From contig JBFZAT010000011.1 in NCBI GenBank assembly GCA_041308845.1, forward strand, positions 9,540 to 73,539: 64,000 nucleotides of DNA, written 5' to 3'. The stretch comes from Candidatus Omnitrophota bacterium. GTDB taxonomy: Bacteria > Omnitrophota > Gorgyraeia > Gygaellales > Profunditerraquicolaceae. A program made the translations under genes and the position numbers. How positions within the stretch are numbered: the stretch's first letter is position 1; the number at the start of each line of letters is the position of its first letter. This document shows positions 16,513 to 47,365 of the stretch, one piece after another. Under the pieces are notes generated by a model, which was given only the letters and a program-made list of their open reading frames with translations, was not told the origin of the DNA and did no database searches.

Positions 16513-16542
16513 TTATTAGAGAAGTTATACAGCATTATTAAA

Positions 16543-18051
16543 GTGGAGTCCGGGGTGGATCAGCTAGGCAGCGGCCGAAATATAAGACTGTGGCTTACAA
16601 GTAAAATGAGCAGCGCGCATATGTTTATCGGCTTTCTTATTTGTTCTTTTATTGCTTTTTTTGCTTGGTTTATTCTACGTAAATTGGCACAAGGGGTATG
16701 GTGTGGTTATGATGGAGCGACATATTCCCAGATTCTTTGGACTACCCTAAACGGGAAGCTGCTGTGGTGTAGTTTTACCGGACTTTCCGGGCTATGCGAT
16801 TTAGGGGTGCATCTTAATTTAACAATATTATTACTTTTACCGTTCTATGCGCTTTTCCCTTTTCCGGCCACATTGGGTATACTTCAGGTATTCTTTTTAG
16901 GCATCGCGGCTATCCCGGTTTATTTAATAGCTAAAGAGAAAATCAATCTGCGAGCTGGCAGATTATTCACGATTTTTTATCTTACCAATAATTTTACGGT
17001 GCAGTCCATTATCGAGGGGTTTCAAACCCGTACTTCAAGTGTGCCGTTTTATTTTTTTGCTTTCTATTTTCTTATTAAGAAAAAATATCTTTGGTTTAAT
17101 TTATTCGTGTTATTATTATGTTTTACCCATGAAATAAATACCCTGTTGGTTTTTATGCTAGGGCTTTATATCGTTTTTGTGCTCCGTAAAATTACTCTGG
17201 GTTTAATAATTTCAATTTTTAGTTTAAGCTGGTTTTTATTAACGATTAAATTTATACAGCCGTTTTTGGGATACGCGGCGCCTTTAGGGGCTTTGCATTT
17301 TCTTGTAGACGGGAAAGTATTATCCGAACCGCTGCAAATCATGCAATATGGTTTTACTCATCCGTTCGATATTTTAGGCAGGGCGTTTTCTTATCCTAAG
17401 CTAGACCATCTCATTAGGTTATTGGGGCCGTTGGGATTTTTACCTTTATTGAGCTTAAAAGAACTTTTAATTGGGCTACCGTTCTTTTTACAAAATTTTA
17501 TCTTAAGCGAACATCTAGTTGGGGTTGAAGTTCCTCGGTACACCATGCCGCTGATTCCTTTTGTGTTTATCTCGGCTATTTACTCAGCAGCCTATCTTTT
17601 CAGGAAACTGAAGACCCGCTGGCTATATTTTGAAATATTGATGGTTGTCTGTTGGGCGTTGTCTACCTATAAGTTTGTTTGGGATCCTACTTATAATCCA
17701 CGGTTTTTACAAGTGCTTGCTCCCTTGGCGATGGAAACTAAAATACATACCGAGGCCCTGAAAGATATTGCCGGATTGGTTCCCGGGGATGCCAGTGTCA
17801 GCGCGGATATCAAAGCTTTCCCTTTTTTAGCCAACCGTTTTCAGCTCTATGATTTACCGTTACACACAGAACAAGCCGAATATATCTTAATCGATCAGAA
17901 ATGCCCAGTGTTTTCGCCAAAACCTTTATTCACACAGGAGCAAGCCCTTGGACATGTTAATCATATATTAATTTCTTCTGATTATGAAATAATTAAAAAA
18001 CAGGATAAGGTGATTTTATTAAAAAGAAAGCAACAAAATAAAATCCCTTAA
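16543..18051 (+). CDS. DUF2079-family integral membrane protein (GT-C-like), paralog B1
   Basis: Motifs GYDGATYSQILWTTLNGKLLW...LGVHLNLTILLLLPFYALFPFPATLGILQV...IAAIPVYLIAKEK fit DUF2079. Close paralog of 23819..25297. Confidence 0.55.
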   Translation: MESGVDQLGSGRNIRLWLTSKMSSAHMFIGFLICSFIAFFAWFILRKLAQGVWCGYDGATYSQILWTTLNGKLLWCSFTGLSGLCDLGVHLNLTILLLLPFYALFPFPATLGILQVFFLGIAAIPVYLIAKEKINLRAGRLFTIFYLTNNFTVQSIIEGFQTRTSSVPFYFFAFYFLIKKKYLWFNLFVLLLCFTHEINTLLVFMLGLYIVFVLRKITLGLIISIFSLSWFLLTIKFIQPFLGYAAPLGALHFLVDGKVLSEPLQIMQYGFTHPFDILGRAFSYPKLDHLIRLLGPLGFLPLLSLKELLIGLPFFLQNFILSEHLVGVEVPRYTMPLIPFVFISAIYSAAYLFRKLKTRWLYFEILMVVCWALSTYKFVWDPTYNPRFLQVLAPLAMETKIHTEALKDIAGLVPGDASVSADIKAFPFLANRFQLYDLPLHTEQAEYILIDQKCPVFSPKPLFTQEQALGHVNHILISSDYEIIKKQDKVILLKRKQQNKIP

Positions 18052-18060
18052 ATAACTAAA

Positions 18061-19167
18061 ATGACTTACGCCAATGACAATACTTTGTATTTAATAAACT
18101 TACTTCAGCAAAAAAAAGACTACCGGAGACTGAACAATTATTTAACGGTTTTAAATGAATTAAAACACAAAATGGTTGTCTGCAAAGGGTACCCGGTTTG
18201 GCTGACCATCGACCCCACTAATATTTGCACGCTTAAATGCCCTTTTTGTTCTACTGGCGCCGGTTTGATTAAACGCGCCCCAGGCATGATGAGTTTTGAA
18301 AATTTTGAAAAAATCATGGATATTCTAGGACCTTACCTTTTGCATATAGATATGCAGAATTGGGGAGAACCCCTGTTGAATAAAGATATCTACCGGATGA
18401 TTGCCCGTGCTAAGCGTTTTGATATTAATATTACTTTAAGCACTAACTTTCAAAATTTTGATGAGCAGGCAGCGGTGGAGATGATTGAATCCGGACTGGA
18501 TAGGTTAATCCTTTCTATTGACGGGGCAAGCCAGGAAACCTATGAAAAACATAAAAGGGGCGGAGACTTTTCTAAGGCCATTAGTAATATAAAAACCCTG
18601 ATTAGCCAGAAAAAACACTTAAAAAGTTTTCTGCCACACGTGATCTGGCAATTCTTAGTTTTTAGGCATAATGAGCATGAGATTGAAATCGCAAAGAAAA
18701 TGGGGGCGGAATTAGGCGTAGATGCAGTAGGAATTAATTCGGCATTTATTGCGGTTAACTCACCAGAATTTAGTGACTGGATCCCGCTGAATAATCAATA
18801 TAGTAAATATGACCTGTCCGGGACTGCACAAACCAACGCAGGTTCAGAGGATTTTCTTAAACCGATTAACCAGGCGGTTTGCAATTGGCTGTGGGAAGGA
18901 ATCGCGATCAATTGGGATATGACCGTTGCTCCTTGTTGTGGAGTCTTTTTGGAACAGGAAGACTTCGGGAGGATTACTGATGCATCTCAATTCCAGCAGC
19001 TCTGGAATAATCAACACTATAAAGTTGCGCGGGAATTTATGCAAAGCAGGCAGACAAAAGATCCGGAAATAAACAATACCTGTGTTCATTGTAATAAAAT
19101 TGGACAGATTAATCTGGATCTCAACCGAGATTTTTGGGCGCAGAGCTTAAAAAGCACAGCGATTTAA
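18061..19167 (+). CDS. Radical SAM protein with Cys-rich SPASM/twitch-like C-terminus
   Basis: CTLKCPFC (CxxxCxxC) at residue ~56, GEPLL, C-terminal APCCG...CVHCNK cysteine cluster. Confidence 0.75.
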   Translation: MTYANDNTLYLINLLQQKKDYRRLNNYLTVLNELKHKMVVCKGYPVWLTIDPTNICTLKCPFCSTGAGLIKRAPGMMSFENFEKIMDILGPYLLHIDMQNWGEPLLNKDIYRMIARAKRFDINITLSTNFQNFDEQAAVEMIESGLDRLILSIDGASQETYEKHKRGGDFSKAISNIKTLISQKKHLKSFLPHVIWQFLVFRHNEHEIEIAKKMGAELGVDAVGINSAFIAVNSPEFSDWIPLNNQYSKYDLSGTAQTNAGSEDFLKPINQAVCNWLWEGIAINWDMTVAPCCGVFLEQEDFGRITDASQFQQLWNNQHYKVAREFMQSRQTKDPEINNTCVHCNKIGQINLDLNRDFWAQSLKSTAI

Positions 19168-19206
19168 ATTTAGCATAGCTTAGTCATCTAAATGAGGTAA
19201 CTTAGA

Positions 19207-20547
19207 ATGAAAATTGTACTGGTTACTTGTCCGGCATACGGCCGTCTGCATCCGCCTTTATCCTTGGCTTGTTTAACCGCAGCTTTAAGACATTGCAGTT
19301 ACCAAGTTACAGCTTTGGATTTAAATATTCAACTTTATAACGAATTTTCGAAAGAACAAAGAGATGTCTACTGGGATTTATTTAACTCACAGCTTTGGCG
19401 GGATAGCAGTATCGTTGAGAGGATAATCTCTAAAGAAAGATTAGAAGCTTGGGTGGAAACTATCTTACAAAAGAATCCACAGGCCGTAGGGTTTTCTGTA
19501 TATAGTTCTAATGAAATTGTCTCTTTAATGCTGGCAGAAAAAATAAAGAAAAAAAATAATGGAATTCAGATTATATTCGGTGGCCCTTTTATCCGTAGGG
19601 ATAATGGAGTTGCCCAATCGATTATTAACAATGCTTATGTTGATTTAGTGGTGATTGGTGAGGGGGAAGGTGCTTTACAGGAAATAGCGCAAGCTTATGA
19701 AGCAAAGAAAGAAATTATGCATTGCCCGGGAGTGCTGCTAAAGTCTGGCGGTCAGATAGTAGACTGCGGTCAGCGGGAGCCGGTTCATGATCTGGACAGC
19801 TTGCCTTTTTCTGATTTTTCAGACTTCCGATTTGAGGACTACGCAGAACCACTAGTGCCTTTGTTGTCTAGCCGGGGTTGTCTTTACAATTGTGGTTTCT
19901 GTAACGAAAAGACCTTCTGGCAAAGTTATCGCTGCCGAAGCGCAGCCAATGTTACCGAGGAAATAAAGCAGCAAATTTTAAAATACGGGATTAATAAGTT
20001 TAGATTTAATGATCTTATGTTAAACGGCAATTTGGAAGAGTTAGAAAAATTTTGTGATTTGATCATTCAGAGTGGGCTTAAAATAACCTGGGGTGGCTAC
20101 ATTTCAGTCCGAAAGATGGGTAGCCAACTGATTAAAAAAATGAAAGAATCTGGGTGCGATTTTCTCTTTATGGGGATTGAAAGCGGTTCACAAAGCATCT
20201 TGAATAAATTTAAGAAAGGCATACAAATAGAAGTAGCCGAAGAGCTATTGCGGGGCTTAAGCCGGGCAGGTATTTCTGCTCACACCGGTTGGATCGTCGG
20301 ATTCCCAGATGAGAGTTCTGTAGATTTTCAACAAACCTTAGATTTTATAAAAAGAAACAGAAGTTATATGAGTTATATTGCCCCCGCCAATATTATGTCG
20401 ATCCAACCCGGGTCTCCGGTTTATCAAGATCCGGTTAAGTTCGGCGTAAAACAAATTATTCATGCTGGGAATTGGGTGGATAATATTACGACTTTAGAAA
20501 TTCGGCAATCCAGGATTAAATATTTCAATAAATATATAGCTTCATAG
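19207..20547 (+). CDS. B12-binding-domain radical SAM enzyme (class B, COG1032-like)
   Basis: N-terminal Rossmann-like B12-binding domain (MKIVLVTCPAYGRL...VGFSVY...IIFGGP), then SSRGCLYNCGFCNE radical SAM motif. Confidence 0.8.
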   Translation: MKIVLVTCPAYGRLHPPLSLACLTAALRHCSYQVTALDLNIQLYNEFSKEQRDVYWDLFNSQLWRDSSIVERIISKERLEAWVETILQKNPQAVGFSVYSSNEIVSLMLAEKIKKKNNGIQIIFGGPFIRRDNGVAQSIINNAYVDLVVIGEGEGALQEIAQAYEAKKEIMHCPGVLLKSGGQIVDCGQREPVHDLDSLPFSDFSDFRFEDYAEPLVPLLSSRGCLYNCGFCNEKTFWQSYRCRSAANVTEEIKQQILKYGINKFRFNDLMLNGNLEELEKFCDLIIQSGLKITWGGYISVRKMGSQLIKKMKESGCDFLFMGIESGSQSILNKFKKGIQIEVAEELLRGLSRAGISAHTGWIVGFPDESSVDFQQTLDFIKRNRSYMSYIAPANIMSIQPGSPVYQDPVKFGVKQIIHAGNWVDNITTLEIRQSRIKYFNKYIAS

Positions 20548-20563
20548 GAAGGTAGAATTAAGA

Positions 20564-21967
20564 ATGAAAATAGCTTTAGTTCAATGTCCGGCCTGGGGCA
20601 GGCTGAATCCTCCATTAGCTTTATCGATGTTGGCTGCTTATTTACGTAGCCAGGGTAAAGAGGTGCTGCTCTTTGATTTAAATAATGATTTATTTCACAA
20701 GGTAAAAGAAGAGGACCGAGCATTGTGGCATTTAGGTAGCGAGTCATTCTGGGAAAATAAGGCTAGTGTTGCCAAATTCGTTTCCGATTATAAAGAATTG
20801 TTGGAAGATTTTGTTAATCAAATCCTGCAGACGGAAACCGGACTTATCGGGTTTTCTATATTTAACAGCTCGACAGAATTAAGTTTATTTATTGCCGAGA
20901 AAATTAAAAAATTAGCTCCTAACAAAACAATAATTTTTGGTGGGCCTAATTGCGCTCCGCATATAAACGGCACCGAAGTGATCAAATCTAGCGCAGTGGA
21001 CATTATGGTGATTGGCGAGGGAGAGTTAGTATTAAATGAAATAATCAACTTGTTTGATAAATATGGTAAGGTCGATTTTTGTAAGGGAACCTGGTTAAAG
21101 AAAGAGGGTAAAGTTATTGATTGCGGGACCGGAGATCTGATTGAAGATTTAAATCTTCTTCCCTTTGCGGATTTTGGAGATTTTTCGTTATCGGCATATA
21201 CTGCTCCATATAGGCTACCAATTTATTTAAGCCGGGGATGTCCGAATCGGTGCGTATATTGCAACGAATCAGTTTTTTGGCGTGGGTATAGACATAGAAG
21301 CGGAGCAAGAGTGTTTCAGGAGTTAAAACACCAGACTGATAAGCATAAAGGAGTGACTCATTTCGATTTCTCCGATTCATTGGTGAATGCTAACCTGAAG
21401 GAATTATCGATTATGGCTGATTTAATTATCGATAACGGCCTTAAAATAACCTGGGGTGGTCAAGCTGTAATTCGTCCTTATATGACTTCTGATTTATTGG
21501 CCAAGCTTAAACAATCTGGTTGTTTGGCTTTAGGTTACGGAATTGAGAGTGGTTCTCAGAAAGTATTAAGCTTGATGCGCAAAGGTTTCACAGTAGAAGA
21601 AGCAGAGCGTGTCATCCGGGATACGCATAAAGCAGGGATAGATGTCGTGACTAATTTTATGTTTGGTTTTCCCGGGGAGACAGATGAAAATTTCGAGGAG
21701 ACACTCCAATTTGTTGCTAAAAATAAAGAGTATATTTCTACCTTAAACCCCAGCCTGGCTTATACAGCTATTGGGGTGGGAACATATCTGCATGCGCATC
21801 CTGAAGAATACGGGATTGATTTAAGCGCCGGTTATCTCTATTGGAGGACCAAAGACGGACAGAATACCTATGAAAAACGGAAAATAAGGTATGAAAGATT
21901 TTGCCGGCAAGCTCTATCTTTGAACATAAATATTAGTTATCCCGTTGATCTTTCAAAGGAAAAATAG
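20564..21967 (+). CDS. B12-binding-domain radical SAM enzyme (class B), tandem paralog
   Basis: MKIALVQCPAWGRLNPPLALSMLAAYL...IIFGGPN...LSRGCPNRCVYCNE; paralog of 19207..20547. Confidence 0.8.
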   Translation: MKIALVQCPAWGRLNPPLALSMLAAYLRSQGKEVLLFDLNNDLFHKVKEEDRALWHLGSESFWENKASVAKFVSDYKELLEDFVNQILQTETGLIGFSIFNSSTELSLFIAEKIKKLAPNKTIIFGGPNCAPHINGTEVIKSSAVDIMVIGEGELVLNEIINLFDKYGKVDFCKGTWLKKEGKVIDCGTGDLIEDLNLLPFADFGDFSLSAYTAPYRLPIYLSRGCPNRCVYCNESVFWRGYRHRSGARVFQELKHQTDKHKGVTHFDFSDSLVNANLKELSIMADLIIDNGLKITWGGQAVIRPYMTSDLLAKLKQSGCLALGYGIESGSQKVLSLMRKGFTVEEAERVIRDTHKAGIDVVTNFMFGFPGETDENFEETLQFVAKNKEYISTLNPSLAYTAIGVGTYLHAHPEEYGIDLSAGYLYWRTKDGQNTYEKRKIRYERFCRQALSLNINISYPVDLSKEK

Positions 21968-21972
21968 ATAAT

Positions 21973-23553
21973 TTGACTATGAATCCAATCATGAAAAACA
22001 GGGTTTCTGTTTATTTATATGTTTGGTTAGGTTTTTTTGTATTGTTTTATGGTGGTTGTTTGATTTATTCAACTTATTTTGGAGGTTTTTTTGTATTTGA
22101 TTATGGCAACTATTTACATGCATTAGTCAATAGAAATAATATTACAACCGTTTTTAGTTCACTTTTTTTGACGCCCTGGAGCTTTAGGATTATAGAAAAT
22201 TTACAATTTTTTCTATGCTTCAATCTATTCGGCCTTAATCCAACAGGATATCTGGCAGTGGGAATGTTGACTTTTGCCGCAGGGATCGTTCTTGTATATT
22301 ATTGCGTATTTACTCTTTCTAAGAGCAGGGCGATAAGTTTTATCAGCTCTTTTTTGATGGTTATCCATCCACTAAATTTAGAAAAATTTGGGTTGATTTG
22401 CCCGGCCCATCTAGAATTTGTTTTTTTCGCAGCCGCACTTCTATCTTATTCATTATCTTTACTCAAAAATAGAAAAGTAAATATTTTTTATATTCTTGCT
22501 TTGGTGTTTTATATTGCCGCTATTTTTACAAGGGTGAATACTCTCATCTTTCCATTATTTATTGTAGCTTATTGTATGTTATTTGAACGGCCTTTAAGTT
22601 TAATAAAAATCATCAAAAGTACAGCAGGATTCTTTATTATTACAGGTGTGTATTTGTGGCTGCGTTTATTTGTCTTGAGCTTAACGCCCGCTCAACAGAC
22701 GCTTTATACTTTTGACTTTTTTAATTTAAGCAATATATTGCATAACTATAAGATGTTTAGTATCTTGGCACTTAAAATAGTTACTAATCCATATAAAATA
22801 ATCTGCACTTGGGATATCTATCTGCATAATCTGTTAAGTGCAGATAAAGCAGTAGTTCTATTTTTTGTGATCATAATTTTATATTTTTCTATATTAGTAA
22901 GAAAAAAAGATTTTTTCGGTCCCGCGTTAGTTAAGACCCGGTTTAAATTATTTTTGCTAGGGTGTTTATGGTATTCGTTAGGGTTATTGCCTTTTTTATT
23001 TTTTGCGGATGATTCGCACACTGCGATTCGTCATTTAGCGCTGTCGACTATTGGTTCGTCAATGGCTATTGCGATAGTGGTGATCGAAGTTTATCGCAGG
23101 ATTTATGCTGCTAGTAGGTATCTGGCCAATGGCATTATATTTCTTTTTCTAATTAATTTTTTTTATTCTACCTACCTGATCTCCAGGAATGTCTTTATAG
23201 ATAGAAATTATGATTATACTTATATAATTCGACATGGTTTTTTTAATAAGTCAAAACTAGAGGCCATCAATAAAACTTATCCTATTTTTCCTCCCCGAAG
23301 CAAAATATATTTTATTAACTTTCATTGGGCCTCAAGGATACCAGAATTTATAAAAATATTTTATAAAGATGAGTCTTTTAAAACATTTTTGTTGACTGAG
23401 CAAAAATTGAAAGAAGTAAGCTTAAACAGTGGGGAGAATATATTTGTATTTATGTCGCTTAAGAATGGCCAGGTATCTGATTTAACCGCTGAATATAATC
23501 TTCAAACCGGATTTATACCTTTAAGTCAGTTCAAAGCAGAGCTGGAGCAATGA
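21973..23553 (+). CDS. GT-C-fold integral membrane glycosyltransferase (PMT/ArnT-like), paralog A2
   Basis: FDYGNYLHALV, NLFGLNPTGY, VIHPLNLEKFGL motifs shared with 15064..16512; polytopic. Confidence 0.55.
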   Translation: MTMNPIMKNRVSVYLYVWLGFFVLFYGGCLIYSTYFGGFFVFDYGNYLHALVNRNNITTVFSSLFLTPWSFRIIENLQFFLCFNLFGLNPTGYLAVGMLTFAAGIVLVYYCVFTLSKSRAISFISSFLMVIHPLNLEKFGLICPAHLEFVFFAAALLSYSLSLLKNRKVNIFYILALVFYIAAIFTRVNTLIFPLFIVAYCMLFERPLSLIKIIKSTAGFFIITGVYLWLRLFVLSLTPAQQTLYTFDFFNLSNILHNYKMFSILALKIVTNPYKIICTWDIYLHNLLSADKAVVLFFVIIILYFSILVRKKDFFGPALVKTRFKLFLLGCLWYSLGLLPFLFFADDSHTAIRHLALSTIGSSMAIAIVVIEVYRRIYAASRYLANGIIFLFLINFFYSTYLISRNVFIDRNYDYTYIIRHGFFNKSKLEAINKTYPIFPPRSKIYFINFHWASRIPEFIKIFYKDESFKTFLLTEQKLKEVSLNSGENIFVFMSLKNGQVSDLTAEYNLQTGFIPLSQFKAELEQ

Positions 23554-23818
23554 TTTTTCACCAAGTGCGCGCCAGTATTAGTTAAAAAATTTAATCAAAT
23601 GATTACCGCATTAAGCTCCCTTTAGTAGGGATTTAATGCTTAGTTTAATTTCTTGTGAGCTATTAATCCTGATTTTAAAACTTATAGATTGAGAAAAAAG
23701 CAACTAAATAAACGTAAAGCGGCTATAGATATTTCTGGCGATAAAATGATTCACTTCTCTCAGTAAGAATATTTACTAATATAATAAAGATAAGGATAAC
23801 GATTACAAGGTAGTCGTA

Positions 23819-25297
23819 ATGGCAAGTAAACTAGAGGGGCTTGAGATGAGCAGAAGTGCTTGTGATAAAAACATGGTATTGCTTATTGTCTTTATTTTTG
23901 CTTTTATTGTATTTTCTTCCTGGCTCACTTTTAATAAGTTTGAGCACAATATGTGGGACGGCCATGATCAAGGAGCGTATTGTCAAATGTTATGGACCAC
24001 TATGCATGGAAAATTATTCTGGTGTAGCGTAACCGGAATTAATGGAGCCTGTGACCTAGCGATACATATGAATGTTTTGATGTTTTTGTTAATTCCTGTT
24101 TATTGGATTTTTAATTTTCCCGTTACGCTTAACATTATCCAGGTGCTTTATCTTGGTATAGCAGCTATCCCGGTTTATCTTATCGCTAAAGAAAAAATGA
24201 GTAGTAAGGTAGGCCTGTTGTTTGCTGTTTTCTATCTTACCAATAATTTTACGATACAATCAATAATTGAAGGTTTTCAACCCAGGAGCATGGCTGTTCC
24301 GCTTTCGCTATTTGGATTTTATTTCCTCATCAAAAATAAATACTTTCTTACTAGTTTATTTATGTGTCTATTAGCCCTTTCCCAGGAGTCAAACAGCATG
24401 TTATTAATTACCTTCGGTATTTACATAATTTTGATTCAAAGACAAATATTACTCGGAGCGCTCATTTCATTTTTTGGTCTGGGATGGTTCATGCTTACAA
24501 TAAACATATTACAGCCCCATTTTGGTGTTTCCAACCCGTTAGGGGTTTTACAATTTGACGCGGCAGGAACAATTTTAGTTTCACCGCTCGAGATTATTCG
24601 CTATTTTATCTTTCATCCAATAGAATTTTTTCAGCGGGCGCTTTCTTATCCGAAGCTGGATTATTTTGTTAGATTGTTTGCGCCATTAGCCTTCCTGTCT
24701 TTATTTAGCTTAAAAGAACTTTTAATCGCTCTGCCGGTTTTTTTACAGAACTTTATTCTCGGTGGAGACCGTTTTATTAGACCTGAAAACCCCAGGCATA
24801 CAATGCCGTTACTTCCTTTTATCTTAATCTCGGCGATTTATTCGGCCAGCTATTTTTATAGTAAACCAAAGTTACGCTGGAAATATATCTGGGTCTTCTT
24901 AGTAATTTGCTGGGGAATATCCACATACAAATTTGTTTGGGATTATAACTATAACCAGCGTTTTTTAAAAGCTTTGGCCCCCGTGACCCAAGAAGAGAAA
25001 ATTCATAGGCAAGCATTAAGGAAAATTGTAAAACTTGTCCCTGCAGACGCAAGTATCTGCGGCGATTTAAAAGCATTTCCCTTTCTGGCCAATCGTTTCA
25101 CTTTTTACGATATCCCCTTTCATATAGAAGATACCGACTATGTTTTAATTGATACTAAAGATCCTAATTTTTCTGCGAAACCAATAAAATCAAGAGAAGA
25201 GTGTCTTGAAATTATAGCAGAAACTTTACGCTCCACCGATTATACGGTTATTAAAGAGGAAGATGGCCTAGTCCTCTTAAAAAGAATAATTAGATAG
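23819..25297 (+). CDS. DUF2079-family integral membrane protein (GT-C-like), paralog B2
   Basis: WDGHDQGAYCQMLWTTMHGKLFWCSVTG...IAAIPVYLIAKEK...FYLTNNFTIQSIIEGFQPRS, near-identical blocks to 16543..18051. Confidence 0.55.
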   Translation: MASKLEGLEMSRSACDKNMVLLIVFIFAFIVFSSWLTFNKFEHNMWDGHDQGAYCQMLWTTMHGKLFWCSVTGINGACDLAIHMNVLMFLLIPVYWIFNFPVTLNIIQVLYLGIAAIPVYLIAKEKMSSKVGLLFAVFYLTNNFTIQSIIEGFQPRSMAVPLSLFGFYFLIKNKYFLTSLFMCLLALSQESNSMLLITFGIYIILIQRQILLGALISFFGLGWFMLTINILQPHFGVSNPLGVLQFDAAGTILVSPLEIIRYFIFHPIEFFQRALSYPKLDYFVRLFAPLAFLSLFSLKELLIALPVFLQNFILGGDRFIRPENPRHTMPLLPFILISAIYSASYFYSKPKLRWKYIWVFLVICWGISTYKFVWDYNYNQRFLKALAPVTQEEKIHRQALRKIVKLVPADASICGDLKAFPFLANRFTFYDIPFHIEDTDYVLIDTKDPNFSAKPIKSREECLEIIAETLRSTDYTVIKEEDGLVLLKRIIR

Positions 25298-25633
25298 GTA
25301 TTTTTATTTACGGCACAGGTTTTAAATATTAAAGATTCAATATTTTTTTATTCCCCCGTAATTATCAGTAACCGGTTCCAAGTTTATTATTTAAGTTAAC
25401 TAGATTGTAGCCTGGGATATACCTAATTTTACCGAGAAAAGTATTGTAGAGTGATATGGTGCTAAACAGCTAAGCACTTTTACAGCTATCCTTTATAGGG
25501 GCAGGTCAGTATTGAGGCTAATGTATTAAATAATGGAATGAACAAAATTCCGGAAAAAACAATTTTACTATTTATTCCCAATTGGGTCAGCAGCTAATAT
25601 TTCGCGCTCGGATTTCTATTCTAGGCTGAGTAA

Positions 25634-26150
25634 AAAGGAATTTAAGATAATTACCTTGAGCCCTCAGGAGAACAGATATATTGAATCGTTTAACGGCAAA
25701 TTATGGGATGAATTGTTGAGCAGAGAGATCTTTGAAACATGCGTGAGGGCGAGGTTTTGGAGCTTAAGTGGCAGGATATTGACATTAGGAGAAATATAAC
25801 TACCCATATGGCACTAAGAACGTAGAGAAACGAGAGGTTCCTATGGATGAAGTTGTCCAGAAGGTTATTATAGGCGTTCTTAAACATCCAGATTCGTAAT
25901 ATATCTTCTGCAACAATGATGAAAACCATATTGAGATATTAATAAATCATTCTTTACAGCTGTTAAGAAAGCGGGTATAATTGACTTCCGCATACATAGT
26001 CTTCGCCATACTTTATTTCGTATTTGGTGATGTCTGGCGTTGGCTTTAATGCGATGAGAGAATTGTTAAGGCACAAGTTACCGTAATGACTCTATGGCAT
26101 AGCCATTTAAAAACGAGCGGTTGATGTTTTAGGACAGCGGGTAGTCTTCG
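25634..26150 (+). pseudogene. Degraded mobile-element remnants: DDE transposase (rve) C-terminal fragment plus frameshifted phage-type tyrosine integrase
   Basis: Translation of 25634-25739 gives ...SPQENRYIESFNGKLWDELLSREIFET, the conserved rve-family C-terminal motif. Downstream frames give ELKWQDIDI..., REVPMDEVVQKVI, IDFRIHSLRHTLF and ELLRHKLP, which are integrase box I/II-like. They are interrupted by stops and frameshifts. Confidence 0.6.
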
Positions 26151-26233
26151 GTTGGTCCCTAGTGGGTATTATAAAGTAAAAACAAAAGAAGTTAATTTCT
26201 GCAACTTTTTGATAATTCTATAATTCTGATATA

Positions 26234-26310
26234 TGGGCGATTAGCTCAGTTGGTTAGAGCGTCTGATTTACATTCAGAAGGTCAGGGGTTCAACTCCTCT
26301 ATCGCCCACC
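26234..26310 (+). tRNA. tRNA-Val (anticodon TAC), CCA encoded
   Basis: GGGCGAT...ATCGCCC acceptor, D-arm AGCTCAGTTGGTTAGAGC, anticodon stem TCTGA/TCAGA with loop TTTACAT, T-loop GGTTCAACTCC, terminal ACCA. Confidence 0.8.
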
Positions 26311-26386
26311 ATTAAATACTTAATAAATAGTAGACTTTTTTGAGATAAGAAAGTATAATAAGTTCCAAAAATTTTCAATAGGTTTT

Positions 26387-26465
26387 GGGGTCGTAGCTTA
26401 GCCTGGCTTAAAGCGCCTCCCTGTCACGGAGGAGATCGCGAGTCCGAATCTCGTCGGCCCCGCCA
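26387..26465 (+). tRNA. tRNA-Asp (anticodon GTC), CCA encoded
   Basis: Acceptor GGGGTCG/CGGCCCC (one G-U pair), anticodon stem CCTCC/GGAGG with loop CTGTCAC, T-arm GCGAG-TCCGAAT-CTCGT, terminal GCCA. Confidence 0.7.
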
Positions 26466-26473
26466 GTAATCTA

Positions 26474-26505
26474 AACGCCATAATTAACTTATGGCGTTTT
26501 TATTT
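26474..26505 (+). terminator. Rho-independent terminator after the tRNA pair
   Basis: Perfect 10-bp stem AACGCCATAA/TTATGGCGTT with a 5-nt loop, followed by TTTTTATTT. Confidence 0.7.
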
Positions 26506-26518
26506 GTGTTGCTGATAG

Positions 26519-26575
26519 AGTGATTTACCTTGAGTTTTGCCTTCCCGGGTGTTAATATAGCATTGAATTTATCCT
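26519..26575 (+). promoter_or_regulatory. Sigma70-like promoter (TTGAGT-N17-TAATAT) inside a ~55-bp element that is duplicated at 37483-37537
   Basis: GATTTACCTTGAGTTTTGCCTTCCCGGGTGTTAATATAGCATTGAATTTA is ~80% identical to the element upstream of 37562; the -35/-10 spacing of 17 is conserved in both. Confidence 0.5.
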
Positions 26576-26663
26576 CTAGATAAACAAGCAAACCCAAAAC
26601 ATGACAAAATTAATCGGCGGTAGGATAAACTTTACTGACTTTCAAAGCAAAGAAAGGTTCTAA

Positions 26664-27389
26664 GTGAAGACTTATGTTCTTATTCCGACGTTCAATGAGA
26701 TTGAGAACATCGTAAGATTAATAAACGAAATTCTGGATTTAGGCATCGAAGGCCTATATATTCTTATCGTAGATGATGATTCTCCTGATGGTACCGGGAA
26801 ATTGACCCAGGAGTTATTCAAAAATGATTCCCGAGTTGAGGTGATGATTAGAGCCGGCCAGCGCGGTAGAGGAGAGGCCGGGGTATTCGGGTTCCGGCAG
26901 GCTTTAAATAAAGGAGCAGATTATATTATTGAAATGGACGCTGATTTTTCCCATCAGCCTAGGCATATCCCGCAATTTCTAGCGGCAATAAAGCAAAATG
27001 ATGTAGTTATAGGGTCGCGTTTTATACTCGGAGGGGAGGATCGCGACCGGGGTTGGCTTCGGCAAACCATTACGAAACTAGCCGGAGTTTACACAAGATC
27101 AATCTTGGGCTTAAGAATACACGATGTATCTTCGGGTTTTCGCTGTTTTAGAAAAGCAGCGTTAGAAAAGGTTGATTTAAGCAGTTTGGTTTCTACGGGG
27201 CCTTCTATTGTTTTAGAATTACTGTATAGGATTATTTTAAGCGGAGCTCGAGTTAAGGAGATACCGATTATTTTTGCCGATAGGAGGCAAGGTAAAACCA
27301 AATTGAAATATGTTATTCTATTTGAAACCTTGATTATGGTATTAAGGTTAAAAAAGCTGAAGGGCACAAAACAGTTACTCAAGCAATGA
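26664..27389 (+). CDS. GT2 polyprenol-phosphate sugar synthase (DPM1/ArnC-like), short form
   Basis: VLIPTFNEIENI...LYILIVDDDSPDGT...IEMDADFSH; GT2 DxD architecture, 241 aa, GTG start. Confidence 0.7.
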   Translation: MKTYVLIPTFNEIENIVRLINEILDLGIEGLYILIVDDDSPDGTGKLTQELFKNDSRVEVMIRAGQRGRGEAGVFGFRQALNKGADYIIEMDADFSHQPRHIPQFLAAIKQNDVVIGSRFILGGEDRDRGWLRQTITKLAGVYTRSILGLRIHDVSSGFRCFRKAALEKVDLSSLVSTGPSIVLELLYRIILSGARVKEIPIIFADRRQGKTKLKYVILFETLIMVLRLKKLKGTKQLLKQ

Positions 27390-27426
27390 TCTTTTAGGAT
27401 AGTTTTGCCCACAAGTTAATTAAAAA

Positions 27427-29052
27427 ATGCAAACCCGAATTAATAGTTTATTAAAGTTTTTGGTGGGGTGCTTGACCATCCAACGGGTTGTTTTTGTATT
27501 GATCTTAATATATTTTTTGCTAGCCGCTTTGACCGGAATTACCACTTTAGGCTTAAGCCATGATGAAGGGCAAAGAGGGTTAGAAACTATAGAGATACTC
27601 GAATTTAAACATTTCCCCCTGATGAGAGAATTCTACTGCGGGGCAGTAATCTCCTATCTACAAATTCCATTATTTTTAATCTTCGGCGCTACGGTATTTG
27701 CCATTAGGTTTACCCAGGTCATCTTTTCATTGGGGAGTATTGTTTGTCTTTATTATGTGGGGCAAAGATGGTTCAACCATTATATAGGTCTTCTTGCCGC
27801 CTTACTGTTGAGCTTAAATCCTGTTTTTATCTGGGCGACCAGATTGGGAGCAGAAAGAGAAGAAATACTCCAGATTTTTCTTTTTTGGTTGGGCTTAGCG
27901 TTAGTCCAACTTTACCTAGATAAAAAAAGAAAAAAGTATTTATACTCTGGTTTTTTTACCTTCGGGTTGGCTTTAAGCGCAAAAATCATGTTTTTAGGAT
28001 ATGCCCTGGGGATGATTGCTACTTTACTTTTTATGGGTAAACCGGCCGCTAATTTTATTAAAAATAAAATCTTTTATAAAAAATATACATTATTAGTTTC
28101 CGGAATAATGTTTTTAGCCGGTAGCTCCTTAGTTATCATTTACAATATCGCCTCCGGAGGCCAAACAATAACTAAATTATGGAACAGTTTATTTATTAAG
28201 GGCGCCGGAGCAGTGCGCGGGGCTAATTTTGGCATTAATAACTTGGATTTTATTAATAATCTTGCCCACAGATTATCGGACTTTAAGTCACTGGTCACCG
28301 GTGGGATTTTTAGTAATTACCATAATTTTTTTAATCTGGTAATTTTGGGTTTTTCTTTATTAATAGTTATAGGTTATTTACTGCTCACTAAACAAAAACT
28401 GTTATCCCAAAAGAAAATTATTTTTTTACTGGGGACCTACTTTTTTTTATTTTTGGGGACCTCCTTTACGCCTAGAGAGTATGACCACGCAAACATTATA
28501 ATTTTGCTGCCGGTAACCCAGATTATCGTAGCGATCGCAATATTTTCTTTAAAAAACATCTTGGCAAAAAATGTATTATTATCAATGCTCGTTCCCCTCT
28601 GTGCCTTATTACCGCTAGTTTCCAATGAAGTCGGCGCCTATGGCCGTTATTTACTTACTTTGGAAAACACTGGCGGTAGAGGCCAATCTGCTTGTGCGGT
28701 ATATGAGCTGGTGGATTATATTAATAGAAATAATATTAAGAAAAATGTATTTTCGGTAGGAGAATGGGGGCCAATCGGAAATGTTAATTTTCTGCTCAAG
28801 CGCAGAGTGGTTCTGCCACTTCCTTATTTTCGGTATTGGCAGGAAGAACCGGATATAAAATTTGAAACTTTTATTAAACAGTACCCGAAAGCTTATTTTA
28901 TCAGGGTGATTGGTTTTGATTCCGAAAACGGCAACTGCGATTTTAAGTTCCTTTCGGAATCGGCATTGAGAAAAAATAAGAAAATATCTGAAGTGAGGGT
29001 ATTTAAGAACCGGGCAGGCGAGGCCTGCTACGGGCTTTATCAATTAGAGTAA
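27427..29052 (+). CDS. GT-C-fold membrane glycosyltransferase (ArnT/PMT-like, polyprenol-P-sugar dependent), paralog C1
   Basis: Polytopic; LSHDEGQRG first-loop motif, REEILQIFLFW, conserved C-terminal globular region; paralog of 32935..34584. Confidence 0.55.
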   Translation: MQTRINSLLKFLVGCLTIQRVVFVLILIYFLLAALTGITTLGLSHDEGQRGLETIEILEFKHFPLMREFYCGAVISYLQIPLFLIFGATVFAIRFTQVIFSLGSIVCLYYVGQRWFNHYIGLLAALLLSLNPVFIWATRLGAEREEILQIFLFWLGLALVQLYLDKKRKKYLYSGFFTFGLALSAKIMFLGYALGMIATLLFMGKPAANFIKNKIFYKKYTLLVSGIMFLAGSSLVIIYNIASGGQTITKLWNSLFIKGAGAVRGANFGINNLDFINNLAHRLSDFKSLVTGGIFSNYHNFFNLVILGFSLLIVIGYLLLTKQKLLSQKKIIFLLGTYFFLFLGTSFTPREYDHANIIILLPVTQIIVAIAIFSLKNILAKNVLLSMLVPLCALLPLVSNEVGAYGRYLLTLENTGGRGQSACAVYELVDYINRNNIKKNVFSVGEWGPIGNVNFLLKRRVVLPLPYFRYWQEEPDIKFETFIKQYPKAYFIRVIGFDSENGNCDFKFLSESALRKNKKISEVRVFKNRAGEACYGLYQLE

Positions 29053-29091
29053 TCCGTTAAGAATATTGAAAGATATCGCCGCAGGGGGAGC

Positions 29092-30555
29092 TTGATGGCA
29101 GAGTTAAAGAATAAAAAAATCCTTCTCATTTTTCCTGACAACAGCCCATTTCCTTACCATATCGCCACGCCGCTAAATATTTTCTGCTTGGGAACGTATT
29201 TAAACAACCAAGGTTATCAAGTGTTTTACTATGATGAACGGGTGGAATCCTTAAAGCAGCTTTATGCCAGGCTGGAGGAGAAGCCGTTTCTGGTGGGCTT
29301 AACTACGATGACCTCGCATCAAATCAAGCGTGCTATTGCTATCGCTGCCAGGATTAAAAAAGTTTTTCCCCGTATACCGCTGGTTTGGGGAGGTGTTCAT
29401 CCTAGCATGTGTCCGGAACAGACCTTGAAATCAGATTGGGTGGATTTTGTAATTATCGGCGAAGGGGAAGAAACTCTGCTAGCTTTAGCCGATAAGCTTC
29501 AAGAAGGAATTCAAGATTTTAGCCAAATAGCAGGTTTAGCTTGGAAAAAAGGCAGTGCAATCCATATAAATCAGCAGAGAGAATTTATGGATATAGAGAC
29601 ATTGCCGTTTCCCTATCCAGACCAGGCAGCCAGTAGGCTTGCTTTATATCTTAAACATGAGACTACTCTACCGGTAGTCGGTTATCAGCTTTCCCGGGGG
29701 TGCCGTTTCCGGTGCCGTTTTTGTTACAGCACTTTTTTCCATAAGGGGATCTGCAGGACAAAAAGCAAAGAAAAGATTAAAGATGAGCTGACAAAAATTC
29801 AAGGTTTGGGCGTAAAGAAAATAATTTTTTATGATGATAGCCTGGGGCCGGACAGGCAGATGTTATACGCATTAACCGAAATTATGGGCGGGCTTAAAAT
29901 GCGTTGGACTGCTTCCCCGCGCCTAGAATTTTTCGATCAAGATTTGTTGGAAAGATTTCAAGAGAGCGGTTGTGAACATTTATGTTTTGGCATTGAATCG
30001 TTTTCAGATGAGAGGCTGGGTTATCTGGGTAAAGGGCTTACTCGGAAGCAGATTTTAGCCGGGGTTAAAGTTATGGCCCAGGCTCAAAACCGAGTTACTT
30101 ATCTATTGATGTTTGGCTTTCCCGATGAATCCGTCGAGGATTTAAAAGAAATGTTGGATTTCGTTGATGAACTAAGACGGTTGCATAAAAATGCCGAGGT
30201 CGCCTTGCAGCCATATGCTCCGTTTCCGGGTACGCCGCTTTATGAGCAGGCGGTAAAAAATGGATTTCAGCCTCCCCTTCAACTAGCAGGCTGGAGCAGA
30301 TTTACCATGGATGACGTGCACACCCCTTGGGTTAAGAATAAGGCCCAGTTAAGAAACTTATATTTAATTTCATTTATGGCTTTTAGGTATGATTGGTTGC
30401 TTAGTGGGTTTAAGTTAAAATATTTTTATTATTTACTGCACAAAATAGCGCTTTGGAGATGGAAAAAAAGATTTTTTGGCTTTTGTGTTGAGTCTTGGTT
30501 ATATCGGCAGTATAAAAGAGCCTGGATTATTTATCAAAAAATAACCAAAGGTTAA
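29092..30555 (+). CDS. B12-binding-domain radical SAM enzyme (class B), third paralog
   Basis: N-terminal B12-like Rossmann domain (KKILLIFPDN...VGLTTMTSH...LVWGGVHPS) and LSRGCRFRCRFCYS. Confidence 0.75.
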   Translation: MMAELKNKKILLIFPDNSPFPYHIATPLNIFCLGTYLNNQGYQVFYYDERVESLKQLYARLEEKPFLVGLTTMTSHQIKRAIAIAARIKKVFPRIPLVWGGVHPSMCPEQTLKSDWVDFVIIGEGEETLLALADKLQEGIQDFSQIAGLAWKKGSAIHINQQREFMDIETLPFPYPDQAASRLALYLKHETTLPVVGYQLSRGCRFRCRFCYSTFFHKGICRTKSKEKIKDELTKIQGLGVKKIIFYDDSLGPDRQMLYALTEIMGGLKMRWTASPRLEFFDQDLLERFQESGCEHLCFGIESFSDERLGYLGKGLTRKQILAGVKVMAQAQNRVTYLLMFGFPDESVEDLKEMLDFVDELRRLHKNAEVALQPYAPFPGTPLYEQAVKNGFQPPLQLAGWSRFTMDDVHTPWVKNKAQLRNLYLISFMAFRYDWLLSGFKLKYFYYLLHKIALWRWKKRFFGFCVESWLYRQYKRAWIIYQKITKG

Positions 30556-31562
30556 TTAAGTGGCTTTTTAGTGCTATCCGGTAAGAGCATTCTTAAAACC
30601 CCGCAAATAAAGCCTATACCGATAGTCAGATGCATGAGGTGTACAGCAAGGTAAACTCTTCCTGTAAAAAACAGGCCTTCCTTTAAATAAACATAGCGCA
30701 GGAATTTTATTTCTAATAAAAATTGGGAAAAAAGCATTACCAGGGAAATAATCAAAAGATTATAATGCAGGAAAGAGCATAAAAAGCAACTTATGCCCCA
30801 GAAAGAAAAAACAGCAGATAAGCTCTCTTGGGCAGTGGCCAAGGCGCCCGGGGATTCGAATTTTATTCTTTTTATAAATACGGGGGCCCAGGTGGCGCTT
30901 CTGGTTAATAGTGTTTTTAGACGTTGTGGGAAATTTTTACACCGGCGTTCAAATTGGATGTTTTGCAGGATAACGTTCCGGTAAACATTAGATAGCCGAT
31001 GGCCGAATTCATATTCTTCAATGCCGGCCCCTTTAAAACTTGGATTAAATCCTCCTAACTGTTTAAAAGCCTTTGTTCTAATTGCTCCGCATTGGGATTG
31101 GAAAATCGTATAATTTCTATAAACTTCGTTTTTTATCCACCGGTAATAGTAATATGTTCTTAAGGAGATAAACTTTGCGCCAAAGGTTTCAGAACAGTAC
31201 TTAGGCGACATCGTACAAGCAATAGCGGTAATTTCCTGTTTTTGGTTAAAAAATTCCCAGATCTGATCCAAGGTATCCTTTTTAATGAATACGTCAGCAT
31301 CAATAAATAACAGAATGTCTCCTTGGGCTTTTTCTGCGCCATCATTGCGAGAAGCTGCAGCGCCTCGGTTTAGCGCATGTTTTATAATTTTTACCGGGAA
31401 GTTATGAGCGATTTCAGCAGTCGCATCTTGGCTGCAGTCTTCCACTACGATCACTTCAAAATCTTTAAAATCCGAGGCAAAAACTGCTTTAAGGCAGTCT
31501 TTCAGGGTATCTGCAGCATTAAAGGCCGGGACGATTATAGAAATTTTAAAGTTATCAGGCAT
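30552..31562 (-). CDS. GT2 glycosyltransferase with C-terminal membrane anchor
   Basis: ISIIVPAFNAADTL...FEVIVVEDCSQDAT...LFIDADV (DxD), C-terminal hydrophobic helices. It is the only minus-strand gene in the island. Confidence 0.7.
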   Translation of the reverse strand: MPDNFKISIIVPAFNAADTLKDCLKAVFASDFKDFEVIVVEDCSQDATAEIAHNFPVKIIKHALNRGAAASRNDGAEKAQGDILLFIDADVFIKKDTLDQIWEFFNQKQEITAIACTMSPKYCSETFGAKFISLRTYYYYRWIKNEVYRNYTIFQSQCGAIRTKAFKQLGGFNPSFKGAGIEEYEFGHRLSNVYRNVILQNIQFERRCKNFPQRLKTLLTRSATWAPVFIKRIKFESPGALATAQESLSAVFSFWGISCFLCSFLHYNLLIISLVMLFSQFLLEIKFLRYVYLKEGLFFTGRVYLAVHLMHLTIGIGFICGVLRMLLPDSTKKPLN

Positions 31563-31760
31563 AGTCTAGTTAGTTGGTTTATAGAAACTCTGGGCTTTTA
31601 TTATTCTCCATATTCAGCTAGTTTTCAAGTGAAATTTAAGCATATATTTTATAAATGTTTTTAGAGTAGGGTTGAAATGCCGATTGTAAAATATATACAC
31701 TACAGCTATAATAAAACTAAAGTTTACCTCGGAAGAGATATGAGCTAGAGTAAAAGCTAA

Positions 31761-32900: not shown

Positions 32901-32934
32901 AATTAAGGTTTAAGAAATTAGCCAGTGGAGTTCG

Positions 32935-34584: not shown

Positions 34585-34598
34585 GGTGCAATGCTAAA

Positions 34599-35519: not shown

Positions 35520-35542
35520 TAAAAGAAAGGCTGAGCTGTTAG

Positions 35543-45462: not shown

Positions 45463-45484
45463 TTATAAAATATAAGGAGATGCT

Positions 45485-46474: not shown

Positions 46475-46479
46475 TTTTT

Positions 46480-47121: not shown

Positions 47122-47365
47122 AATCTCACGAAATTAATTTCGGATTTCTGGAGTTGGCCCCAATAAAAATTGTTTTTCTCGACGATAAAATCAAAGTTTT
47201 ACTCCTTTTAGCTAACCAAAAAATACTTGACAATGCCAAGATATTGTGGTAAAAAAATAACATAGCTACTACATTTTGCGTTGATTAACGGAGGCTTATA
47301 ACTAAGTTGGAAAAAATTGGATAAACCTTAAGGGCTCAGGCAAGATAATTCAAAGCGGGCCCTTA

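Follow-up and report, generated by a model that had tools for sequence, protein, structure and literature searches.

The window analysed here is a 64,000-nucleotide stretch of contig JBFZAT010000011.1 from a Candidatus Omnitrophota bacterium. It contains three genes for radical SAM enzymes with a B12-binding domain, designated RS1, RS2 and RS3, and we examined their sequences, their genomic setting and their possible role. A preliminary description of the sequence had placed the three genes within one glyco-island. The glycan context proved to be real and conserved, but the genes fall into two clusters, cluster A (15064-25297) and cluster B (26664-37438). The list of three radical SAM genes was also incomplete, as two radical SAM/SPASM genes, SPASM1 (18061-19167) and SPASM2 (31761-32900), share the same clusters. 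Altogether, about 22 kb of DNA encodes six proteins of the GT-C glycosyltransferase type, three family 2 glycosyltransferases (GT2), five radical SAM enzymes and one amidotransferase (Table 1).

Two clusters of radical SAM and glycosyltransferase genes

The gene order of cluster A is remote GT-C, DUF2079, SPASM1, RS1, RS2, remote GT-C and DUF2079, and the spacing of 5-39 bp is operon-like for all but the last gene. The two unannotated polytopic proteins, at 15064 and 21973, are paralogs with 26% identity, and the 15064 protein had no match in Pfam. Jackhmmer searches with these proteins converged on PMT_2 proteins, and hhalign against the PMT_2 alignment gave a probability of 96.4% (E 1e-9). 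DUF2079 was also matched to PMT_2 by hhalign (probability 90%, E 1.7e-6), while a search of PDB sequences with the DUF2079 profile returned nothing useful. SPASM1 (368 aa) and SPASM2 (379 aa) consist of radical SAM and SPASM domains only, and the C-terminal domain of SPASM2 resembles BtrN (E 1e-6).

Cluster B consists of GT2a, a PMT_2 gene (PMT2a), RS3, GT2b in inverted orientation, SPASM2, a second PMT_2 gene (PMT2b), GT2c and AsnB, with a gene for a probable outer-membrane protein next to it. Both PMT2a and PMT2b scored over the PF13231 gathering threshold, which classes them as GT-C transferases. GT2a matched the NCBIfam models for AglJ, dolichyl-phosphate hexose transferase and PpgS, each under its cutoff. 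Residues 3-304 of GT2c aligned with positions 7-312 of the 316 in the ArnC model (180 bits, cutoff 529), and the protein matched the PgfS model end to end (152 bits, cutoff 500). The AsnB protein scored 627 bits vs 817 for the XrtA/PEP-CTERM exopolysaccharide amidotransferase model. The secreted 504-aa protein encoded downstream, whose C-terminus reads ...VELKF, had no family match in Pfam or NCBIfam; it is probably an outer-membrane beta-barrel, and its membership in the system is uncertain.

Because the genes are tightly spaced on one strand and recur together in other genomes, their arrangement exceeds chance. The two clusters are separated by an rve_3 transposase fragment, a weak phage-integrase-like fragment, tRNA-Val and tRNA-Asp genes and a terminator-like hairpin (25656-25825, 26235-26499). 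This stretch is mobile-element debris at a tRNA site. The hairpin, with an 11-bp stem, follows tRNA-Asp at 26473-26499 and was the only signal above chance level in scans for promoters and terminators; an Rfam scan found nothing besides the tRNAs.

Table 1. Genes and other features of the two clusters and the DNA between and beside them
Feature	Position	Strand	Evidence
Remote GT-C (PMT_2-like) polytopic membrane protein, paralog of the 21973 protein	15064..16512	+	~11 transmembrane-like segments
DUF2079 membrane protein, GT-C-like, copy a	16543..18051	+	PF09852 172.7 bits
SPASM1, radical SAM/SPASM	18061..19167	+	PF04055 and PF13186; C56/C60/C63; five C-terminal Cys
RS1, B12-binding-domain radical SAM	19207..20547	+	
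RS2, tandem paralog of RS1	20564..21967	+	
Remote GT-C (PMT_2-like) polytopic membrane protein	21973..23553	+	jackhmmer, hhalign
DUF2079 membrane protein, copy b	23819..25297	+	PF09852 210 bits; 54% identical to copy a
rve_3 transposase pseudogene fragment	25656..25799	+	PF13683 27.3 bits vs cutoff 26.5
tRNA-Val(tac), tRNA-Asp(gtc)	26235..26465	+	ARAGORN; Rfam 72.4 and 59.1 bits
GT2a, soluble DPM1/AglJ/PpgS-like GT2, candidate polyprenyl-phosphate sugar synthase	26664..27389	+	PF00535 100 bits
PMT2a, ArnT/PMT_2-type GT-C glycosyltransferase	27427..29052	+	PF13231 45 bits
RS3, B12-binding-domain radical SAM with aromatic/basic C-terminal tail	29095..30555	+	
GT2b, GT2 with C-terminal transmembrane segments	30552..31562	-	PF00535 112.7 bits; transmembrane-like at 247, 260, 305
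SPASM2, radical SAM with Twitch-like (4-Cys) SPASM domain	31761..32900	+	PF04055 and PF13186
PMT2b, GT-C glycosyltransferase	32935..34584	+	PF13231; 27% identical to PMT2a
GT2c, ArnC/GtrB/PgfS-like putative polyprenyl-phosphate sugar synthase	34599..35519	+	
AsnB-type glutamine amidotransferase	35543..37438	+	TIGR01536 522 bits vs cutoff 267
Secreted 504-aa protein	37562..39076	+	Signal-peptide-like N-terminus

Family placement and predicted fold of the B12-domain proteins

The open reading frame (ORF) positions first given for the three genes were borne out (RS1, 19207-20547; RS2, 20564-21967; RS3, 29092-30555). In the ORF list RS1 has 446 aa and RS2 has 467 aa; RS3 likely starts at the ATG at 29095, which would give a protein of 486 aa, because its orthologs and P0122 start at that residue. 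The N-terminal B12-binding domain and radical SAM core (class B) ascribed to all three proteins were confirmed. PF02310 (B12-binding) scored 47, 38.6 and 69.2 bits for RS1, RS2 and RS3, respectively (gathering score 32.1), PF04055 (Radical_SAM) scored 55-87 bits (gathering score 29.5), and the predicted fold agreed. Thus, at the level of sequence and structural models, the class-B radical SAM architecture is established. The CX3CX2C motif lies at C225/C229/C232 in RS1, C226/C230/C233 in RS2 and C203/C207/C210 in RS3 (486-aa numbering).

RS3 departs from the other two proteins in several respects. The N-terminal motif MKI(V/A)LV.CPA.GRL.PPL, previously attributed to all three, is present in RS1 and RS2 but not in RS3, which starts with MAELKNKKILLIFPDNSPFPYH. 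Likewise, the cysteine motif described as ending in C(N/Y)E about 220 residues in does not extend to RS3, where it reads LSRGCRFRCRFCYS, starts near residue 200 and has S instead of E as its last residue (CYS). RS1 and RS2 share 41% identity (E 3e-112) and are true tandem paralogs. RS3 is only 28-29% identical to either of them and, therefore, belongs to a different subfamily and is not an equivalent third copy.

The RS1/RS2 family contains two nearly invariant cysteines beyond the CX3CX2C motif (C173 and C187 in RS1), positioned in the hairpin that joins the B12 domain to the barrel; a metal site and a disulfide are both possibilities. RS1 and RS2 also have a helical insert in the Rossmann domain, at approximately residues 39-88. 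The RS3 family instead carries a conserved C-terminal tail of ~76 residues, not present in RS1/RS2, in which F430, R431, R455, W456, E466 and Y470 are invariant across 20 orthologs. With 28% FWY, 21% KR and 3% DE, the tail resembles a membrane-interface segment and, judging by this composition, may hold RS3 at the membrane. No membrane-like segment was found in RS1 or RS2.

For family placement, we used NCBIfam models with curated cutoffs (Table 2). None of the three proteins reached the cutoff of any named family, and therefore they lie outside the BchE, HemN and methylthiotransferase groups, the placement that the preliminary description had singled out as incompatible with its proposal. UPF0004 and TRAM Pfam matches were also not found in RS1-RS3. 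RS1-RS3 are thus uncharacterised, new subfamilies of the known class-B radical SAM superfamily.

Table 2. Scores of the radical SAM proteins on NCBIfam models
Model	Protein(s)	Score (bits)	Curated cutoff (bits)
RiPP C-methyltransferase TIGR03975	RS1/RS2/RS3	154/158/111	282
ApyD	RS1/RS2/RS3	159/117/124	750
HpnJ	RS1-RS3	113-126	578
BchE TIGR02026	RS1/RS2/RS3	117.7/107.5/96.5	481
MgmA TIGR04014	RS1-RS3	84-102	360
Ladderane B12-radical SAM	RS1-RS3	82-111	360
AprD4 NF033070	RS1/RS2/RS3	34.8/34.1/55.7	500
MiaB/RimO TIGR00089	RS1/RS2/RS3	52/51.5/38	251
HpnR	RS1-RS3	32-65	650
Tes	SPASM1	30	450

Two of the models in Table 2, TIGR03975 and ApyD, describe enzymes of peptides that are made by ribosomes and modified after translation (RiPPs), and they are the best sub-threshold models for RS1/RS2. 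In RiPP or protein maturation, the substrate would be a ribosomal peptide or a secreted (possibly TPR) protein, C-methylated by the B12-radical SAM enzymes, crosslinked or epimerised by the SPASM enzymes and then O-glycosylated by the PMT-type GT-C proteins. Protein O-mannosyltransferases belong to the PMT family, most SPASM enzymes mature peptides, with SkfB, PqqE and CteB-type enzymes among the PDB sequence matches, and TPR proteins recur near RS1 orthologs. However, the scores are far under the cutoffs, the genes of the window clusters abut, with no precursor-like small ORF and no plausible peptide in the gaps, and neither leader peptidase, RiPP recognition element (RRE) nor ABC-export genes were found in the context. 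The neighbours are instead sugar-nucleotide and polysaccharide genes (DegT, epimerases, Wzx, Wzy). Peptide maturation is, therefore, improbable. It was rejected as the lead explanation because precursor ORFs are absent and the one candidate, a small ORF in the related locus L003, is a truncated radical SAM gene.

Other sub-threshold matches in Table 2 (HpnJ, the ladderane model and Tes) point to lipids. In a lipid-tailoring role, the radical SAM enzymes would add methyl groups, rings or bridges to membrane lipids or to the polyprenyl carrier itself, in the style of GrsA/B, Hgm, Hbs, HpnP/R or Tes/Mss, and the glycosyltransferases would add head groups. B12-radical SAM and SPASM/Twitch enzymes co-cluster in archaeal and bacterial tetraether-lipid loci, which would suit such a role, as would the membrane-interface-like tail of RS3. 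Hbs homologs with Mss have also been reported in Omnitrophota (bioRxiv 10.1101/2023.10.20.563219), but SPASM1 and SPASM2 are without the extra domain described there for Hbs. Furthermore, neither the window clusters nor the orthologous loci that we inspected contain tes/mss, squalene-hopene cyclase, fatty-acid or glycerolipid genes, and the window has no hopanoid genes. We rejected lipid or glycerol dialkyl glycerol tetraether (GDGT) synthesis as the lead explanation on account of these missing genes and of scores far under the cutoff for all lipid-family models scored (HpnJ, HpnR, ladderane and Tes), and we consider it very improbable. The GDGT-ring-synthase, lipid and glycosylated-peptide options entertained earlier find no support in a context that has neither tes/mss or fatty-acid genes nor a precursor-like small ORF, peptidase or export genes.

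The structural models of RS1 and RS3 were of high confidence (predicted local distance difference test scores of 92.5 and 90.5, respectively). The best Foldseek matches were TsrM, MgmA, OxsB, AprD4, CysS and TokK for RS1 and OxsB, MgmA, TsrM and AprD4 for RS3, with E values of 1e-16 to 1e-23 and query-normalised template modelling (TM) scores of 0.6-0.75; MiaB and RimO ranked lower. AprD4 has the same fold and is not known to need cobalamin, so that the fold does not settle cobalamin use by RS1-RS3. Among PDB sequences, the nearest was 9CCB (E ~1e-12), which is the methyl-coenzyme M reductase glutamine C-methyltransferase MgmA/QCMT (PMC12931638); AprD4 was also near (E 2e-11 for RS3).

Relatives and their gene neighbourhoods

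Relatives of the RS1/RS2 type, in species-representative genomes, came mostly from Omnitrophota and Elusimicrobia and also from metagenome-assembled genomes (MAGs) labelled Planctomycetales, Bdellovibrionales and Pacearchaeota. Orthologs of RS1 were 53-67% identical. The locus on contig P0003 is syntenic with the window, with fpg-pyrKDF followed by PMT_2, DUF2079, SPASM, B12-radical SAM, a 175-aa gene and the RS1 ortholog. Locus L003 contains two SPASM genes, a 714-aa B12-radical SAM gene, a TPR gene, the RS1 ortholog, DUF2079 and, after DUF2079, a UbiA prenyltransferase gene. In mycobacteria, the UbiA family includes DPPR synthase, whose product is the precursor of a GT-C donor. In L004, orthologs of SPASM1 (67% identical), RS1 (60%) and RS2 (62%) were found, with the RS2 ortholog directly after that of RS1 and followed by remote GT-C, DUF2079, GT2 and PMT_2 genes. 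Within these 21 kb of L004 (1-21356 of a 95-kb contig), six B12-radical SAM genes are accompanied by four genes for SPASM radical SAM proteins and four for polytopic GT-C-like proteins. An ortholog of the 21973 protein comes after the RS2 ortholog in both L004 and L005, and orthologs of DUF2079 copy a adjoin the RS1 orthologs of L003 and L004. The RS1 ortholog of L006 lies beside GT9, GT2, GT4, GH5, PMT_2 and DegT genes. In P0003, L003, L004/L005 and L006 alike, the RS1 orthologs have SPASM radical SAM genes and DUF2079 or PMT_2 genes as neighbours. Together, these loci show that the RS1/RS2 duplication is older than these species, with both copies kept, and that the RS1/RS2 module consists of SPASM, a B12-radical SAM pair and DUF2079.

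Several side observations concern these same loci. A 58-aa "gene" at L003:8124-8300 is the cut-off N-terminus of an RS2-like B12-radical SAM protein (MKIALIQCPARGRQNPPL...), which indicates gene decay and turnover within radical SAM arrays. In L005, which is the NCBI MAG copy of L004, either frameshifts or assembly errors divide the RS2 ortholog, and likewise the SPASM1 ortholog, into two ORFs. At L006, L007 and L008 (VGKO01000029.1), an RS1 ortholog labelled Candidatus Pacearchaeota archaeon adjoins a GT9 heptosyltransferase-family gene and bacterial-type polysaccharide genes, and the archaeal label of VGKO01000029.1 may be a binning error.

Orthologs of RS3 were 39-50% identical and occurred in several phyla. 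In 3/3 independent loci inspected, the RS3 ortholog (43-50% identical) was flanked by a PMT_2 gene and a GT2b-like GT2 gene. A PMT_2 gene adjoins the RS3 orthologs of L054, L055, L056 and L057, and GT2b homologs (151-206 bits), the most constant neighbour of RS3 orthologs, lie beside those of L054, L055, L056 and L083; with regard to GT2a, a 241-aa GT2 is also present in L054. The same four genes, with an identical RS3, were found on a 7-kb contig of a second assembly, from the same or a near-identical organism. The RS3 module is thus a conserved combination of GT2, GT-C and B12-radical SAM genes. GT2b is convergent with RS3 in the window, the two stop codons overlapping by 4 nt, as they do in assembly GCA_041308905.1. 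The homologous GT2 gene is co-directional with the RS3 ortholog in L054 and L056, and a local inversion has therefore taken place.

A metagenome scan with the RS3 profile returned 4 ortholog loci at 44-49% identity; the remaining matches, at ~30%, were used for the broader clade only. We counted neighbours within 8 kb in non-redundant loci of at least 6 kb. GT-C genes were found in 10 of 16 loci of close relatives, 11 of 32 of intermediate relatives and 13 of 48 of distant relatives; the corresponding counts were 10, 3 and 8 for SPASM genes and 11, 13 and 15 for loci with at least two B12-radical SAM genes. Overall, in Omnitrophota and other uncultivated phyla, the orthologs have GT-C and GT2 genes as recurrent neighbours and are often found in arrays of 2-6 B12-radical SAM genes.

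Membrane neighbours were typed by Pfam scans of all polytopic neighbours, together with jackhmmer and hhalign; single-sequence phmmer with PMT2a or PMT2b missed most divergent PMT_2 proteins. The close set had 22 polytopic neighbours, two of which are the remote GT-C proteins of the window itself, and included 12 PMT_2 and 2 DUF2079 proteins. Among the 75 polytopic neighbours of the distant set were 19 PMT_2 proteins, 21 Wzx-type flippases (14 + 7), 6 Wzy_C proteins and 3 MurJ proteins. Therefore, the whole clade is embedded in surface-glycan biosynthesis.

The inspected RS3-ortholog loci also hold genes for DegT aminotransferases, nucleoside diphosphate (NDP)-sugar epimerases/dehydratases and methyltransferases. 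The first two of these would suit a scheme in which soluble nucleotide sugars are the substrates of the radical SAM enzymes and become unusual donors for cytoplasmic glycosyltransferases, with GT-C proteins nearby simply because they share the polysaccharide locus. RS1 and RS2 have no membrane-like segment, and BlsE, BtrN and AprD4, which are radical SAM enzymes of soluble sugars, were among the matches. However, the window clusters contain neither NDP-sugar-modifying enzymes nor nucleotidyltransferases, the steadiest partners are GT-C proteins and GT2 proteins similar to polyprenyl-phosphate-sugar synthases, and the tail kept in RS3 orthologs suggests membrane association. Altogether, we regard modification of soluble nucleotide sugars as unlikely.

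GC content of the window is 0.32-0.40 across 14-38 kb and 0.42-0.45 in the flanks, which carry housekeeping genes (carAB, fpg, pyrKDF, V-type ATPase, purH, mnmE, folE, accA). Subunit A of the V-type ATPase is 75-88% identical to many proteins, all labelled Candidatus Omnitrophota. Nearly all genes in 1-64000 are on the + strand, GC skew is positive throughout and cumulative skew climbs steadily, which suggests that the window is part of one leading-strand replichore arm. A gene at 41775-43712 encodes a 645-aa protein with an N-terminal PilZ domain (a cyclic di-GMP receptor) and a GH76-like (alpha-1,6-mannanase family) region, an unusual fusion near glycan clusters. Further on, the row of genes at 44317-50656 encodes an M20 peptidase, a PAC2-family protein, a HAD hydrolase, two Ddl-like ATP-grasp ligases and a KamA-like lysine 2,3-aminomutase radical SAM protein, and may be a beta-lysine or peptide-ligation cassette.

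Proposed role in envelope glycosylation and known systems

As the best-supported reading, though with somewhat less than an even chance of being right, we propose that RS1-RS3 and the two SPASM/Twitch enzymes serve as tailoring enzymes when an envelope glycan is made by a polyprenyl-phosphate/GT-C pathway. Our results show the domain architecture, the fold, the gene order and the conservation of the neighbourhoods, whereas substrate, chemistry, cobalamin use and membrane association are inferred. In the proposed pathway, GT2 enzymes would first load a sugar on polyprenyl phosphate at the cytoplasmic face; the ArnC/GtrB-like GT2c and the DPM1-like GT2a are the candidates, and the membrane-anchored GT2b may act likewise. 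The cytoplasmic radical SAM enzymes would then alter an unactivated carbon of the sugar, either on the lipid carrier or at the nucleotide-sugar stage. Once the carrier has been flipped across the membrane, the six GT-C-type proteins (two PMT_2, two DUF2079 and two remote PMT_2-like) would attach these modified sugars, at the periplasmic face, to an acceptor in the envelope, and AsnB would add an amide.

Such a pathway would combine steps that have precedents. ArnD and DprE1/E2 tailor polyprenyl-phosphate sugars ahead of GT-C transfer, radical SAM remodelling of lipid-linked hexoses is known from HpnJ and calditol synthase, and GenK and AprD4 act on sugar carbons. As for the reaction, C-methylation via methylcobalamin is the most likely candidate, being the commonest chemistry of the class; alternatives would be ring contraction (as for HpnJ and OxsB), dehydration (as for AprD4) and epimerisation. 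The gene data alone appear to fit methylation, rearrangement or dehydration alike. It had also been suggested that the three copies modify a single scaffold iteratively. This was not indicated by our results, because RS1/RS2 and RS3 are parts of separate modules, either of which is found without the other in the ~8-10 kb of flank seen in other genomes (L003, L004 and the P0003 contig vs L054-L056).

Several observations weigh against the proposed pathway. No cobalamin genes were found in the 64-kb window, and some but not all Omnitrophota are reported to synthesise cobalamin (PMC10066038). The diol dehydratase AprD4, although no methylase, matches RS1 and RS3 structurally as well as the methylases do, and the top NCBIfam scores of RS1/RS2 are those of the peptide methyltransferase models discussed above. 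The assignment of DUF2079 and of the two unannotated membrane proteins to GT-C comes from profile-profile matches over only ~110-130 columns. A small flippase ORF of the GtrA or ArnE/F type was not found within 15064-39076, although one could be encoded elsewhere. Furthermore, 5/16 loci of close relatives have no GT-C or GT2 gene in the available flank, and the RS1 ortholog of L001/L002 has a TPR protein and pilM next to it but no glycosyltransferase gene within 10 kb. Finally, the substrate, the product and the use of cobalamin are read from sequence context.

If true, the proposed pathway would suggest a role for DUF2079. The class-B radical SAM family is very large and mostly uncharacterised, and its known members act on antibiotics, cofactors, peptides and lipids; a conserved link to GT-C/GT2 modules would point to radical tailoring of cell-envelope sugars. 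In the searchable literature, we found no account in which B12-type and SPASM radical SAM enzymes are coupled to GT-C/GT2 modules that include DUF2079, and nothing relevant was found on DUF2079, on radical SAM with GT-C or polyprenyl, or on B12-dependent radical SAM with polysaccharide. A still wider possibility, which we consider doubtful, is that envelope glycobiology has an undescribed branch that is widespread in Omnitrophota, Elusimicrobiota and further uncultivated phyla. In this branch, polyprenyl-phosphate-linked sugars would undergo carbon-centred reactions by arrays of B12-type and Twitch/SPASM enzymes, whether C-methylation, deoxygenation, epimerisation or ring contraction to carbocycles, and dedicated GT-C proteins including DUF2079 would then install the sugars on the cell surface. 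Such a branch, if real, would extend the known tailoring of lipid-linked sugar donors by radical chemistry and would provide the first function assigned to DUF2079. Omnitrophota are ultra-small, possibly host-dependent and without an isolate, and the results bear on their surface chemistry. The findings define gene sets that can be tested (GT2, B12-radical SAM and PMT_2; SPASM, two B12-radical SAM and DUF2079). They are also a caution that loci of this kind could be mislabelled by genome-mining tools, which might call them RiPP or "ladderane" clusters. We consider them a solid, testable lead for new glycan chemistry in an uncultivated phylum, with the reaction itself still hypothetical.

Among structurally characterised class-B enzymes, MgmA/QCMT (9CCB), TsrM (6WTE), OxsB (5UL4), TokK (7KDX) and CysS (9N1B) share with the RS proteins a Rossmann B12 domain, a TIM-barrel core with CX3CX2C and a C-terminal helical region, but sequence identity is only 14-19%. 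Their substrates are protein Gln, Trp, a nucleoside and carbapenem or pantetheinyl intermediates, none of these enzymes lies in a glycosyltransferase locus, and the helical insert of RS1/RS2 and the aromatic/basic tail of RS3 differ from the solved structures. The best mutual structural coverage was with the apramycin radical SAM 1,2-diol dehydratase AprD4 (6FD2; TM ~0.7 in both directions). AprD4 resembles the proposed role in acting on a sugar carbon of a pseudo-disaccharide, but belongs to an aminoglycoside cluster with the reductase AprD3 and without GT-C neighbours, and its NF033070 model is far from reached (Table 2). The RiPP C-methyltransferases of the PoyB/C type and ApyD typically occur in multiple copies per cluster. 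Unlike theirs, the RS loci are without precursor peptide, leader-processing and export genes and have a polysaccharide-type context.

HpnJ, which functions in the formation of the hopanoid cyclitol ether, and the archaeal calditol synthase are radical SAM enzymes as well; each works downstream of a GT2 and remodels a hexose that a membrane lipid already carries. HpnJ was among the top sub-threshold models for all three RS proteins. Its cutoff of 578 bits means, however, that RS1-RS3 are not HpnJ members, and no hopanoid or GDGT genes are nearby. Finally, the ArnC-ArnD-ArnT, GtrA-GtrB-GtrX and DprE1/E2 with Emb/Aft systems each pair a GT2 polyprenyl-phosphate-sugar synthase with a GT-C transferase, and in the Arn and Dpr systems the lipid-linked monosaccharide is tailored before GT-C transfer. 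The proposed tailoring differs from that of Arn and Dpr in being carried out by radical SAM enzymes rather than by a deformylase or an oxidoreductase pair, and the clusters differ from Arn and Gtr in having no GtrA/ArnEF-type flippase gene and, with six GT-C and five radical SAM genes, in being far denser. GT2c aligns at full length with the ArnC and PgfS models, under their cutoffs, and PMT2a and PMT2b belong to the ArnT/PMT_2 family.

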